64,000 bases of DNA from assembly GCA_013239625.1 (NCBI GenBank), contig MU053304.1:992001-1056000 (forward strand), in the 5' to 3' direction. The notes beneath the pieces were generated by a model, which did no database searches, was not told the DNA's origin, and was given only the letters and a program-made list of their open reading frames with translations. This DNA is from Lama guanicoe. Lineage: Eukaryota. Shown here piece by piece: positions 1,878-12,547 of the stretch (positions within the stretch are counted from its first letter, which is position 1; the number at the start of each line of letters is the position of its first letter). Both the position numbers and the translations under genes were made by a program.

Positions 1878-1993
1878 TCACAGGGATTCAATGATGTAGT
1901 AGGCAGCTCCCAGGGCCCCCAGAGCCACAGCAACAGTCCCGAGGGCTTGGAGCACGCGAATTACGATGAGCGGAATGTTTTCTTGTAGGTCTT
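1878..1993 (-). CDS. Alternative (+1) frame of SPATA3 exon 3 encoding a putative C-terminal transmembrane anchor (E)[37 protein letters not shown]
   Basis: The frame is open from the same acceptor to TGA at 1880-1878 (end of ORF 1878..2234). It is entered by any phase-1 donor and contains an uncharged run of about 22 residues near the C-terminus. Confidence 0.55.
1888..1993 (-). CDS. SPATA3: SPATA3 coding exon 3, canonical frame (R)[34 protein letters not shown]
   Basis: Acceptor ttttgcag|AAGAC at 1994/1993, with phase-2 entry matching exon 2. The translation matches the recalled SPATA3 C-terminus (..CGSGG..SCLLHH*). TGA at 1890-1888. A strong donor CAG|GTACGT at 1850/1849 suggests a further non-coding exon. 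Confidence 0.92.
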
Positions 1994-4082
1994 CTGCAAA
2001 GCAAAGCAGAAAACTCACAGGTTGGGGGCAGCTGGGCTCTAGTGCCTGTCTATGGGTGGGGGAAGGAGGAAATTGTGGGGTTCCCTCAGGACTGCAGGAA
2101 TACCCTTCTCCCCCCATAGGTCCTCCTCTCAGGGGAACACAGCTCCCTGCCTCCCTTCCAGTAAAGCTCTCCCACAGGACCTGCCAGGATCCGAGAATGG
2201 GCTGGCGTCCTGGGATGCCATATCCTCTGGACACTCAGGGAACAGGTCACAAAGGCAGTCAAGGCCGCCACATGCCAGGCGCTGTGCTAAACACCTCACA
2301 CCCGGAGTCTTCCTCAAGCTTGCCAACAGCCCTGTGAAGCCCAGTCCACCATGTCGCTCCCTTCTGGAGCTGAGGCATCGGAGGAAGCCGCATATCATAC
2401 CCACCACAAAGGTGGTGGAAAAGGGAAGTATATGATTATGCTAATTATTGTGAGGAAGGGTTCCACAAAATGCAATATCCATTTTGACAAAAATCCTACC
2501 GAAGTAGGGATTCTTATTTAATGGGAATGTGTATTTAAAGCCCAGCACCAACCTTCCACTCCACTGGGAAATGGAAAACTTACGGAAGCAGGTGCTAAAC
2601 TTGAGCAGAATTAAGACTACATGTTTTACCTAGTCAGAGTGGCCTCTGTCCCGCCCCCTCACTTTCCTAATTCTTGTCCCTTTTCCTCCCCACTAATGCT
2701 CTCCCTTTAAAATAGGCAACAGAGGATCCTAAGATCCTTTCAGAGTCAGCTCAGATACGACTGGTACTACAGTGTCTGTCTGGAACCCCGCTCAGGAGGG
2801 AAGCTCTTTGAACACCTACAGGACACGCATCACTTCCTGGCTTGCACCTTTGTTTCTAAATGTACATGTCTTAAGTTACCATGTAGAATGCAGTTTTCAT
2901 GGGTCAAGTTCCCTGTTCTGGTTCCCCTCACGGTGCCTAGCAGCCTATGCAAAATAAGCTTTTCCTACTTGTTGGTTTTAAAGTGATATGAATCCCTGGC
3001 GCAGCATGGCACCAGCTGGACGGAAGTAGTTAAGTGTGCGGAAAGACAGCCGATATTGGCGAGTGAGGCGGGGCGGGGACATGCCTTTCCCTGACAGGAG
3101 GTAGCCAGGCAGTAGAGTATCTTTAGCTCTGGCATGTTCTCCCCACACACGTGGGTGTCTGTTTGCTTCTCTTCTTGTGCCTGAGGGATGATGTTTTCAA
3201 GGATGGACAAGACAGGGGGAGGGACGAGGAAGAGGAGCAGGATGGGGATGGGGGATGGGTGGGCTCTGCTTCTGGGTTGGGGGATCCTCAAGCAGAAAGC
3301 CTCTTCTGTGGACATTTGGGAGACCTGAGTCCAGGCGGAGCCGTTCTGGGGCCCAGAGCTGCGGGTGGGTGGAGGTCTATCTCCCAGACCTTGCACACAG
3401 CCCTGCACCACTGGGAAAGTGAGGGACATCTTCAGTCCAGTTCCCTGGACCAGGGGACGTGGCAGCCACCAGGTTGCTCTTGGTGGCTTCGTGGAAGAGG
3501 AAAAGAAGGGCAGATACTGCGGACGATGCTGTGGGGGCTGCCCGGTCATGGACAGACCCCCGTGGGGCTGCCAGGAACAGCCTGAGACCCTCTCAAGGGG
3601 TGGAGGTCTTACTATTACCATTTACAATTATATTTATCACTAAACTCTGGGGGAAAGTCGTACGCAGTTCAAGAACCAGAAGCTGTCAGTTATGGCCTAG
3701 GCCACAAAAGGAGGTGCTGGCCCAACAGAGCCTTTAATCACCAAGCTCCTGAGTGACGGGGAAGTCATGACGGGCTGGAGCGGGGAGAGCTCTGAGCAGG
3801 GAGGGTGCCTGCGGAGCAAAGAAGCTGAGACCCCCGCAGAAGCAATCCCCGGTAAGGCAGAGTCTCAGCACCTCTCTGTGCAGGTGGGGCACCTCTGGGT
3901 GGGTCTGGTCAGAAAGGGCTGGGCGCCAAAGCCCAGGAAATGGCCACCGGGAGGGAGAGGCTTTCCTTCTGGCCTAGGATTCCCAGGAGGAAGTTCCACA
4001 CGACTGCTAATGCGATCCCACGTGGGGCCTGGCCCTGGGAACCGTGTGCCCTGAGGCTCCAGCCCCCCACGCGCTCCAGAAC

Positions 4083-4257
4083 CTGTAGAAGGTGAGGAGG
4101 TTTGGGAATGCTCTCCCTGGCATGCTTGGCCAGGCCCGAGGCAGAAGGACATCGAAGATGCGGCTATGACACAGGCCCAGACGACGCCAGCAAGCCAAGC
4201 TGCCGGGGCAGGTGGAGCAGGAACAGAAGGCACGCGGGCCCGCTCGAGTCAGAGGCC
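4083..4257 (-). CDS. SPATA3: SPATA3 coding exon 2 ([59 protein letters not shown])
   Basis: Acceptor tctgtccacccag|GG at 4258/4257 and donor AG|GTTCTG at 4083/4082. Length 175 nt, phase 1 to 2. Contains the conserved SPATA3 motifs [19 protein letters not shown] and PNLLTFYR. Confidence 0.95.
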
Positions 4258-9797: not shown

Positions 9798-11659
9798 GTA
9801 AATGAATTGGAGAGGGCAGACACATATGGGTAGGATTTCCTGGTAGCAATGAAAGAAACATTCCATTTCATACCAAAGAGCCAAAAATGACACAGAAAAC
9901 AAATCCCTGTTCCCCGGGAGAGCGATGAAGGAAACATAGAGGGTCAGGCTTCAGAGGAGTGGGGAGTTTTCCTATGGCAGTGGAGAAAATAAGTGTGGGT
10001 TCTTTAGCAAGGGCAGTCGCAAGAAGCAGGGAGATGGTATTTGCGGAGTTAGAGGTTGTCCTGGAAAGATGAGGAAGAATGGCACTGCAGTAGTTCTATT
10101 CTAGAACGTCTTCCCCTCTGCCTTCTGGCCTGAGCCCTTCCTAGCCTGGAATTCTGACCCTTCCATAACACAGTCACAGCTCACTGTCCCAGGCTTACTG
10201 GCCACCTCATTGCTACCCACGTCCAGCTCTAGCTGATCAGCTGGTGAACATGCCTGACTTTCCTGCATTTGGGAAGCCCTTTCTCCTCCATCAGGCCCCT
10301 CCCCATCTCTGTCAGAACACTTCCCACCACCAAGATTCATCTCAAGTGGAACCATCTCCTCATAAAGCCTTTCTTGAGATCCCCAAATAGATGCGATCTC
10401 TCTCTTCCAGATCACATTCTGCATGTTAGAGTGATTTCTATCCTTGTCTTGTCTCGAGTTCCCCACTCCCAGACTGTGGAGACCATGCGCCAAAGTCCAG
10501 AGAAGGGGCTCAACTTGCTCTTGCTGCTTGAAGGTGAAGGTCGGAGGACAAAGAATGCAGGGAACCATTGAAGGCAGGGTGGGTGTGGCTGATGGGGGAC
10601 AAGGCACCTTGGAGATGGTCACCTAGGGCTTGTTTTCAAAGAGGGACTGGGAGTTTTGGCTTTGCCTGAGGGTCACAGTCGGAACAGTCCCTAGGTAAGG
10701 GGCTTTCCTAACCAGGTATGGCAGCCCTGGCTAGAGCTCATGGACTATTTAGGTTAGCCGGAAGAATGAGTCTAAGGGGATGCAAAGTTAGAGAGTCAGG
10801 ATGAGGTCCTGACCAGAAGGCTCCAGGTGGTTCTCGTCCTCGGGATGCACCCTGGGCACTCAGAACAAACATGGCACCACTTGTCCTGAAACTAGCATCT
10901 TAGAGCTGGATGACGCCACAGCTGGATGTCACCCCCACACGTCAGCAGCGGGGACACTTGCTCTGGTCACCACCAGGAGGTGGCAGAGCCTCCAGCAACC
11001 CCGGATTGGACTACTGCACCCAGAGCACTCCCCCCTTTCCGAATGCTGTTCCTGGAGGGGCTTTGGGAGACAGAGGCACTTGGTGCTCCTTTAAGAGCCC
11101 ACTGCCCGGGGTCCTCAGATCCACGGATTAAGCTGCTGGGGCCACAGGCCTGGGTTCCTTCATAGGACGGGTCTCAAGGGCTGTGGGTAAGAGTTCGGCA
11201 GCCGGCAGGCTACCCTAAGGCAGTGCCTTCCTTAGAAGGTCATTGTGAGGATGAGTCGTGAAAAGCCCTTAGAACAGTGCCTGGCTCACGATAGGCGTGT
11301 TTTTATTGTAGTTGTGATTCCCGTGGAGGAGAAGGCTAAAGAACCAAGCAAGGAACAGTGGATGTGGCGGGAGGGGGCGGGCCCAGAGCTACAAACTCCC
11401 AAATCTGTACCTTACAAAAGCGTGATTGCGAGCAATGGGTCAGGGGAAGGGGATTGGGCGGATGGGTGGGAGATGTGACTACAAGTTAATTGGAACACTT
11501 TTGACCCGAGATTGCCCCAGCGAGTCACCTGGGTGAGAAATCGAATTCATCTTCACCCAAAACGGTGTAAGAGGAGGCTCTAGGAGAGGGACCGTGACAT
11601 CAGGCATTTGTCGCTACTTGGGACCAACGGGGTCAGGGGACTCCCCTCGTATTTTAAGT

Positions 11660-12500
11660 TTCCCACCTGGGGACAACCGCGGCTACCTGGCGTTCCCACC
11701 TCCCGCCCTCGGGCCCCTCACCATCCGTCTGGGTCGCCTGCTCCACTAGGGGGACGCAGCCTCGCGCCGCCCTCTTGCGCGCTTGGCTGGCGGCGGGCTG
11801 GATGTCCAGGGTGCCCTCGGGGCGGCTGGGGCAGAACACGGCCGTGTACACCTCCACGGAGGGGCCGTGCGGGGCGAAGGCGCTGCAGAGCAGGGTCTCC
11901 ATGCGGCGGCGCGCCCCGGCCTCCTCGTCCGGCCGCGGCTGCACGATGATCCCGACGAGCGCGGCGAGCGGGCGGCCGCCCCGGGCGAGCACCTGCTGCA
12001 GGAGCAGCTGCAGCCGCGGCAGCTGGGAGGCCAGCGCGGCCGCGCGGCACAGCACCAGCAGCAGCTGCGCCCGGGGCTCGGGCGCCGCGGGCGGCTGCCG
12101 AGGCTCCTGGCCGTCCGGCGCCGCATCTTCCGTCGACCGGGAGCCGGGGGTCCGGGCCGGGGCCGGAGCCGCCTCGCGCTCGCACTCCTGCGGGTCCCCA
12201 GTCTTGCGCCCGTCGCACGGCCGCTTCTGCGAGTAGCGCTTGCACTTCGCAGCCGGGCAGTCAGCGCACGTCCACGAGCTGTCTGCGGAGCGCTTGAGCC
12301 GCCGCCTGGCGCAGTTGCTGGAGCTGCTGTGGCCGCTCGTGGCTCTGATGGACGAGGGTCGGGAGGGCTGATTGGTTGGGACTTGCTCCAGAATGTTCTG
12401 CAGGGTCAGGCAGCACTCATCCTGTCTCCAGAGCTCGCCTAGCAGGACAACCTGGCCGTGGCCCTCGATGGACTGGGCGGGAGCCTGTTGCTGCGGCTCG
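11660..12500. promoter_or_regulatory. CpG island over the C2orf72-like exon
   Basis: Very high GC content and dense CpG dinucleotides compared with the CpG-depleted flanks. Confidence 0.85.
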
Positions 12501-12547
12501 GCCTCCCCCTCCCCCGGGGCCCTGGAGGGCTGGGCCCCAGGCTCCAT
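11722..12547 (-). CDS. First coding exon of a C2orf72-like (DUF4630-family) paralogue, 275 codons plus 1 nt
   Basis: Part of the 409-aa ORF 11654..12883. Motifs GHGQVVLLGELW, LLLVLCRAAAL, AALVGIIV, METLLCSAF and AVFCPSRP resemble recalled C2orf72 motifs (GQVLLVGELW, LVFVLCRASSL, AALVGVLV, LEALLRAVF, AAYCPGLP). Likely start ATG at 12547 (GACATGG, strong Kozak). Donor GATG|GTGAGG at 11722/11721 (phase 1). If unspliced, the frame runs to a stop at 11654. Confidence 0.8.

Follow-up and report, generated by a model that had tools for sequence, protein, structure and literature searches.

The SPATA3 locus of the guanaco (Lama guanicoe) raises the question of which protein its last exon first encoded. 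In the window analysed here, 64 kb of contig MU053304.1 (assembly GCA_013239625.1, positions 992,001 to 1,056,000), this exon is open in two frames. One gives the C-terminus of canonical SPATA3, and the other gives a C-terminal membrane anchor that would complete a protein of 313 amino acids (aa) when joined directly to an upstream coding exon, here referred to as exon A and published as SPATA3 'exon 1bis'. Overall, we judge it probable that the locus is one unit with a frame switch, and that the anchored form is the original gene. All locus coordinates given below refer to the minus strand of the window, and a slash in a motif marks the splice junction.

The 313-aa gene model and its records in other mammals

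Exon A (11722..12547, 826 nt) is defined by its sequence and translation and by 78 homologues. It starts with an ATG at 12547-12545 (context GACATGG), continues through 275 open codons without a stop, and ends one base into the next codon (826 = 275 x 3 + 1, phase 1) at a GT donor (11720..11721, context GATG/GTGAGG) that follows its last base, 11722. The last exon is preceded by an AG acceptor (1994..1995, ...ctttgctttgcag/AAGACC) with a strong pyrimidine tract before the AG. In the anchor frame this exon (1878..1993, 116 nt) completes the split codon G/AA as Glu, adds 37 residues and stops at a TGA at 1880-1878, so that exon A plus last exon give 826 + 116 = 942 nt, or 313 codons and a stop, in frame. 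One base off, in the SPATA3 frame, the same exon (1888..1993) encodes 34 Arg/Ser/Cys/Gly-rich residues up to a TGA at 1890-1888. This model had been put forward in a first-pass annotation of the DNA, and every number given there for the exon end, its length and its phase was confirmed on the sequence, as were the split Glu codon, the 942-nt length, the acceptor, the frame and the position of the TGA. That annotation had reported no terminal exon belonging to exon A itself between 11721 and 7700, and none was found on re-examination either. A tblastn search of five orthologous proteins against the window gave matches with E<0.01 only at exon A, at 4257-4083 and at the last exon.

Database proteins from other mammals contain the same junction. 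A search with the exon A protein recovered the 78 homologues, mostly named SPATA3 isoforms, which were sorted by the sequence that follows exon A: the anchor in 14, SPATA3 exon 2 in 15, a read-on into the intron in 38, and partial or other sequence in 11. The direct join, TQTD/E[D or N]LQ, occurs in 11 of the 14 anchored homologues (11 of all 78), from bats, carnivores, rodents and the dugong. The NCBI models with this join come from two Phyllostomus bats, badger, sea lion, marmot, Onychomys, Microtus and dugong, and one of them, the Phyllostomus hastatus 'SPATA3 isoform X2' (P0014), has a length of exactly 313 aa. Three of the 11 direct-join proteins (P0011, P0026 and P0043) are encoded on single Logan contigs of 1.1-2.9 kb, which must therefore be spliced RNA. 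The 313-aa model of the first-pass annotation thus gains support from a junction found in other mammals and on three transcript contigs. The models P0014, P0028 (Meles meles 'SPATA3 isoform X2'), P0016 (P. discolor LOC114493861), P0030 (Zalophus LOC113921032), P0060 (Onychomys X1) and P0042 (dugong) have the architecture and junction predicted in the window. Direct-join models are 57-70% identical to exon A of the window where aligned, and the five that appeared in the anchor search are 74-84% identical to it in the anchor. They are automatic models without described function, named after SPATA3 yet lacking the SPATA3 Pfam domain.

A search with the anchor peptide identified 28 proteins that carry the anchor tail. 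These include 'SPATA3' forms in which SPATA3 exon 1 is joined to the last exon, from alpaca, dromedary, whales, dolphin, lemur, tree shrew, hamster and human, and add a Chinchilla model with the direct join from exon A. The anchor exon of the window is 100% identical to annotated Vicugna proteins. Both frames of the last exon are on record in the same taxon for Phyllostomus discolor, Onychomys, Cricetulus and Vicugna. With two frames in the recorded products of one species, both conserved at the level of sequence identity, the last exon qualifies as a dual-coding exon.

Other products of exon A were also observed. P0063-P0072, comprising the Mus musculus 'SPATA3 isoform X3' and nine Logan proteins, run on beyond the donor into intron sequence, where they end after about 12-40 residues. 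Cricetids and Acomys have anchored forms, and none was present for Mus among the matches obtained. In P0037 and P0080 (marmot-like) and P0054 (Neovison), exon A is spliced to the downstream exons of C2orf72 proper (...EEELALT..PNGDCED...). These hybrid models are either read-through products of two neighbouring paralogues or artefacts of gene prediction.

The predicted 313-aa protein would consist of a cytosolic alpha/beta domain of the C2orf72 family, a long disordered linker and a membrane tail anchor. Its tail contains a single hydrophobic helix of 19-22 residues that ends 3 residues before the stop and so lies within about 30 residues of the C-terminus, as is typical of tail-anchored proteins, and the best 19-residue Kyte-Doolittle mean is 2.12, versus 0.14 in the SPATA3 frame of the same exon. 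The N-terminus is hydrophilic by eye and the predicted fold contains no other long hydrophobic helix. Insertion into the membrane would be post-translational, as in other tail-anchored proteins. The first ~155 residues are predicted to be disordered, and core residues ~160-262 to form a three-layer beta-alpha-beta-alpha-beta-alpha domain, with predicted local distance difference test (pLDDT) scores of 83-96 (over residues 161-240 in one reading). The best VIA-align matches of the core, with a Z score of up to 7.6 that lies in the background range, were halves of Arl2-type and other G-domains (small GTPases), flavodoxin-like domains and STAS-like domains. Its expression is probably in spermatids, together with that of SPATA3.

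SPATA3 exon 2 and the two frames of the last exon

Coding exon 1 of SPATA3 (7215..7599, 385 nt; ATG at 7599, donor ACAG/GTGGGC, Pfam PF15662 with E=4e-17) sits within the intron of the 313-aa model, and its phase 1 end carries a G, as in exon A. Exon 2 (4083..4257, 175 nt) lies between an acceptor cccag/GG and a donor CAG/GTTCTG (4081-4088); its start is in phase 1 and its end in phase 2. By eye this donor looks weak, with little resemblance to the usual GTRAGT, and could promote skipping of the exon. As the length of 175 nt is 1 mod 3, exon 2 switches the frame of the last exon. When it is included, the last exon would be read in the SPATA3 frame and yield an Arg/Ser/Cys/Gly-rich soluble tail, and when it is skipped, the last exon would be read one base over and yield the C-terminal membrane anchor. 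In this scheme a single transcription unit would comprise two coding first exons, used alternatively, and a middle exon that switches the frame; exon A and SPATA3 exon 1 could each feed either route, since both end in phase 1.

As SPATA3 exon 1 ends in phase 1 with a G, its direct splicing to the last exon (7215-7599 + 1878-1993) also predicts an anchored protein. This form is on record as a 137-aa 'SPATA3' and a 166-aa 'SPATA3 isoform X2' in the alpaca and as a 137-aa 'SPATA3' in the dromedary, and the anchored 137-aa form is a RefSeq SPATA3 record in both species. The first-pass annotation was right in its main lines, but had overlooked the published exon 1bis, the splicing of exon A to exon 2, the 175-nt switch and the anchored exon 1 isoform. 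The SPATA3 domain PF15662 matched none of 8 anchored exon A proteins, and did match the forms that contain exon A and exon 2 (P0004, 175 bits; P0006, 100 bits). The 313-aa protein has its locus and DNA in common with SPATA3, and contains no SPATA3 residues.

Conservation of the two frames was compared by identity counts over the 34 overlapping codons in 6 taxa with both readings on record; as the taxa are related and the 15 pairs non-independent, this small sample provides a lead and not a test. Over all 34 codons the anchor frame was identical at 391 of 510 positions (77%) and the SPATA3 frame at 364 of 510 (71%). In the first 12 codons identity was 0.57 for the anchor frame versus 0.68 for the SPATA3 frame, and in codons 13-34 it was 0.88 versus 0.73. 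Since the wobble base of one frame is the first or second codon base of the other, this pattern suggests that constraint is split along the exon, acting on the SPATA3 frame at the exon start and on the anchor frame over the helix.

Several of these elements have been described before. PMC7920483 describes 'exon 1 bis' as joined by splicing to exons 2 and 3, both in mouse and in human. This isoform has the orthologous upstream coding exon, the same transcription unit and the same last exon as the model in the window, but contains exon 2 and has its last exon in the SPATA3 frame. That paper also cites a human exon-2-skipped, frameshifted isoform of 138 aa (Zhou et al., 2019, as cited in PMC7920483) and calls the abundance of the exon-2-skipped form unknown. 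In PMC12284469, only exon-2-skipped isoforms of human SPATA3 are predicted by TMHMM to be transmembrane, and a 355-aa variant with an upstream exon is mentioned. The human isoforms I3 and I4 (PMC7920483, PMC12284469) have the same exon 2 skip, frame switch and anchor-frame C-terminus as the 313-aa model; they differ from it in that they start at SPATA3 exon 1 and are regarded as frameshift variants of SPATA3 rather than as the ancestral reading. The words 'C2orf72' and 'transmembrane' each occur 0 times in the text of PMC7920483, which notes neither homology to C2orf72 nor an anchor.

In the open-access literature we found nothing that joins exon A to the anchor frame, links exon 1bis to C2orf72 or calls the anchor ancestral, and among the papers listed none paired SPATA3 with overprinting, dual-coding, alternative reading frame or tail-anchored. 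A further set of listed papers contained neither C2orf72 nor DUF4630. One paper contains both 'C2orf72' and 'SPATA3', a genome-wide association study in dogs, and the C2orf72 papers among those listed are, by title, expression or association studies. Exon A and the anchor frame are each already in print, and their direct join is already present in database models. What is new here is the evolutionary reading, namely an old paralogue, an ancestral anchor frame and a SPATA3 overprint.

Mammalian exons read in two frames are known from CDKN2A (p16INK4a/ARF) and GNAS (XLas/ALEX). There, as proposed for SPATA3, alternative first exons feed a shared exon that gives two unrelated peptides in two frames. 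Unlike CDKN2A and GNAS, the SPATA3 locus has first exons of the same phase; a 175-nt middle exon would pick the frame, and one reading would be traceable to a much older gene.

Family membership and age of the anchor frame

The first-pass annotation had assigned exon A to the C2orf72 family, and this assignment is supported by profile search, tree and tblastn. The Pfam model PF15443 (DUF4630) matched exon A with E=2e-4 and 22.0 bits, below the gathering score of 25 bits, over residues 195-262 (positions 2-70 of the 155 in the profile). Ten orthologous proteins gave a similar picture: 4 passed the threshold (25.8-28.8 bits), 3 fell just below it (21.2-22.4 bits) and 3 had no match. What the second half of the Pfam model describes is the C-terminus of C2orf72 proper, a part that the exon A gene lacks. 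A profile built from 8 anchored placental proteins was searched against 1.84 billion representatives and found 91 proteins with E<=0.001, 56 of them at <=1e-10; names were recovered for 30. Proteins named as C2orf72 homologues are among these matches, from turtles, lizards, alligator, platypus, a marsupial and a caecilian. Such a search in reptiles and marsupials had been proposed by the first-pass annotation: reptile C2orf72 homologues were found, and a marsupial orthologue of exon A was not. The profile matched the turtle 'C2orf72 homolog' P0088 at 7.8e-31, versus 2.8e-14 for the placental C2orf72 P0110. Likewise, in tblastn the exon A of the window was 52% identical to the turtle protein P0088 (E 2.8e-21) versus 36% to placental C2orf72 (E 9e-7).

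A phylogenetic tree of 46 rows (support given as pairs of values; the starred clade is placental exon A) resolved four groups. C2orf72 proper (99/96) comprised placentals, a marsupial, platypus, turtles, Pogona and a caecilian, all with a hydrophilic C-terminus. The second group, 'a', joined turtle, gecko, Sceloporus, sea snake and kiwi with echidna and placental exon A (93/88); within it, echidna grouped with the placentals (94/87) and placental exon A formed the starred clade (99/94). Group 'b' contained platypus, turtles, alligator and Podarcis, and group 'c' Varanus and Gopherus. Full-length proteins of the a and b groups end in a C-terminal hydrophobic anchor. On this evidence, the exon A gene appears to be an ancient paralogue of the C2orf72 family with its own orthologues, and not C2orf72 itself. 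The annotation's tandem C2orf72 duplicate stands as a paralogue, and falls as a recent tandem copy, in view of the separate old clade shared with tail-anchored genes of echidna and sauropsids.

C2orf72 proper (PF15443/DUF4630; P0110 and P0111) has in common with exon A the alpha/beta core, with an N-terminal VLLxGE strand and the region LxFxLCRA...PAALVGVxVQP...GxLxVxRAAC. It differs in forming a separate clade from caecilian to placentals and in its hydrophilic C-terminus (...EEELALT..PNG.CE..) without an anchor. The sauropsid and monotreme 'C2orf72 homolog' genes (Malaclemys XP_053864695.1, P0088; Paroedura LOC143824265, P0086; platypus LOC103165941, P0171 and P0176; echidna XP_038603043.1, P0119) have the same core followed by an anchor. 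Unlike the placental locus, they have no SPATA3 exons on record, and their anchor sequence is close to the placental one only in monotremes.

Combinations of core and anchor vary in these genes. The platypus proteins P0171 and P0176 have two different core exons and one identical anchor, and the a-type core of echidna P0119 is followed by an anchor that is nearly that of the platypus b-type cores. An a-type (P0088) and a b-type (P0101) turtle protein, from two species, have about 30 of 35 tail residues in common by eye, with cores in different groups of the tree. The a and b tails of squamates differ, which argues against a universal constant-anchor array.

The anchor of the window was compared with the last 40 residues of outgroup proteins by Smith-Waterman alignment and 5000 shuffles, which control for composition and not for helix-like order. 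The platypus anchor scored 71 against 23.4+-4.6 for the shuffles, a score reached by none of 5000 (z about 10), with 17 of 23 residues identical. The echidna anchor scored 68 (0 of 5000). Two turtle anchors scored 30 and 32, values reached by 46 and 54 of 5000 shuffles, respectively, and the gecko anchor scored 31 (91 of 5000). The SPATA3-frame peptide of the last exon, used as a control, never rose above shuffles in the outgroup comparison. Placental and monotreme anchors share the ordered pattern LG-x6-G-xx-G-AA-YY.

The annotation had further pointed to a resemblance of the anchor to the C-terminus of C2orf72 proper, and this did not hold: in 10 of 11 comparisons the score did not stand out from shuffles, and that of the caecilian case was reached by 70 of 3000 before correction. 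A QD..EE.AL stretch was picked in 5 of the 11 tail alignments with C2orf72 proper, and a deep relation between the exon starts of the anchor exon and of C2orf72 proper could still exist. Homology with C-termini of the C2orf72 family, on which that annotation had staked its model, is indicated for the anchors of monotremes and, more weakly, turtles, and not for the tail of C2orf72 proper.

A search with the SPATA3 exon 2 peptide gave 140 matches, and among the 120 listed every row with a named organism was placental. As the anchor reaches monotremes and exon 2 was placental in all of these named rows, the anchor frame would predate placentals and the SPATA3 frame would not. The comparisons thus support an ancestral anchor frame and a SPATA3 frame that arose by overprinting. 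The proposal that SPATA3 came later and overprinted the exon, made in the first-pass annotation, is in line with exon 2 being placental among the listed matches and with an anchor that extends to monotremes and weakly to turtles. The anchored form would accordingly represent the original gene, the placental orthologue of an old tail-anchored C2orf72 paralogue of amniotes. In ancestors of the placentals, SPATA3 exons 1 and 2 would have originated within the intron of this gene and taken over its anchor exon, reading it in a new frame. A more far-reaching scenario is put forward tentatively, as somewhat less than an even prospect: SPATA3, a testis gene of placentals, would have been born from intron sequence inside an older tail-anchored gene of the C2orf72 family, its canonical C-terminus overprinting a helix that predates the monotreme split and possibly goes back to the ancestor shared with turtles, to which an ancestral array of 'variable first exon, constant anchor exon' may be added.

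Competing explanations and significance

A number of observations weigh against the ancestral anchored gene proposed here. We infer the 11722 to 1993 junction in the guanaco from other mammals. Of 24 sequencing runs listed, 18 contain the stretch or part of it, 8 of them recorded as RNA; the word shares of 0.18-0.36 in the RNA runs carry no weight as evidence here. None of the named camelid proteins among the 78 homologues contains exon A in full, and only the hybrid Camelus ferus model P0077 contains part of it. The 38 of 78 homologues that read into the intron include Mus musculus 'isoform X3' (P0063) and 9 Logan relatives, and the anchored form may not be made in some lineages. No marsupial orthologue, whether of exon A or of the anchor, turned up in the profile and anchor searches. 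In the tree, the branches that join placental exon A to echidna and sauropsids are unstarred, and the echidna row is a flagged long branch. The Sceloporus anchor is weak (score 25, reached by 205 of 5000 shuffles), and the Podarcis tail is no better than shuffles (score 18, 3198 of 5000). With composition correction, BLASTP of the anchor was not significant (E 0.51 for platypus, 19 for echidna, no match for turtle), and, the anchor being rich in Ala, Gly and Leu, its likeness to outgroup tails is partly compositional. For the core, the fold searches pointed to no function: Foldseek found no match in the PDB with E<=0.001 (best E 0.025), and the best VIA-align Z of 7.6 was at background level.

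One alternative account makes exon A a mere alternative 5' exon of SPATA3, with a long soluble isoform (~355-370 aa) as the real product and the anchored form as splicing noise in gene models, an account we regard as unlikely. It draws on the counts of exon 2 and anchor after exon A (15 versus 14 of 78) and on the published exon 1bis isoform composed of exons 1bis, 2 and 3 (PMC7920483), the mention of a 355-aa variant (PMC12284469) and the abundance of exon-2-skipped forms called unknown (PMC7920483). It does not fit an anchor frame that is open in all 14 anchor-ending proteins and in the window, that is 88% identical over codons 13-34 in the 6 taxa while the SPATA3 frame is 73% identical, and that matches at 17 of 23 residues the anchors of monotremes, lineages in which no SPATA3 exon 2 was found. 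Three independent transcript contigs with the direct join and the poor-looking donor of exon 2, CAG/GTTCTG, also speak for a genuine skipped form. Convergence of GC-rich last exons, which would independently have given Ala/Gly/Leu-rich helices and would make the placental anchor frame the newer reading, is hardly credible: the ordered LG-x6-G-xx-G-AA-YY pattern goes beyond composition, none of 5000 shuffles that keep the composition attains the monotreme score (z about 10), and the tails occupy the same place, following a homologous core at the very C-terminus of proteins grouped by the tree. The non-significant composition-corrected BLASTP and the distance of squamate tails from the placental anchor are what this explanation has in its favour.

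The state of exon A in camelids bears on a further possibility, that it is a decaying relic in a camelid-like genome, giving at most unspliced or intron-retaining RNA and no 313-aa protein. The closest named proteins to the window are camelid, and exon A is intact. The window departs from 18 other placental orthologues at 2 of the 41 comparable positions that are invariant among them, with Pro194Leu (codon 11966-11968) and His234Tyr (codon 11846-11848). These changes, together with the lack of a named camelid protein with full exon A among the 78 homologues and with the closest match, P0002 (a Logan contig, 96% identical), reading through the donor into the intron, would be expected of a relic. 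Both changes are present in P0002 as well and are probably lineage-specific, which argues against fresh damage; the 275 open codons, start context, donor and last-exon acceptor are intact, and the anchor exon is identical to that of annotated Vicugna proteins. Decay therefore seems very improbable to us. Among the exon A homologues no camelid direct-join protein was present, and the 313-aa protein is unannotated in the camelid lineage.

If the ancestral anchored gene is accepted, the SPATA3 locus would offer a clear-cut example, in mammals, of a gene born by overprinting, with the ancestral frame named from outgroups and both frames in use, and the single 175-nt switch exon together with a named ancestral frame would make selection on overlapping frames testable with existing genomes. 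Naming is affected as well, since a conserved membrane-anchored protein of the C2orf72 family would be filed as a 'SPATA3 isoform' in many mammals, and is unannotated in camelids. According to PMC7920483, the first Spata3 knock-outs, which hit only exon 1, were fully fertile in vivo, and deletion of the full locus, exon 1bis and anchor exon included, resulted in sperm alterations and in vitro hypofertility. Part of the full-locus phenotype could stem from the older anchored protein and not from SPATA3.

A CpG island at about 11500..12500 (observed/expected CpG 0.87-1.00, GC 0.69-0.78) covers the 3' two thirds of exon A; the 'CpG-island exon' of the first-pass annotation is thus real as to the island, which lies within exon A and not upstream of the ATG. 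In a tblastn search of 14 family proteins against the window, exon A was the sole match at E<0.01, with no further family cassettes. The only AATAAA downstream of the stop in the window lies at 611 on the minus strand, ~1.27 kb past the anchor-frame stop, and possibly marks the 3' end of the last exon. On the plus strand, a GC-rich region (0.61-0.63) at 52270-53220 contains long overlapping Pro/Ser-rich open frames.

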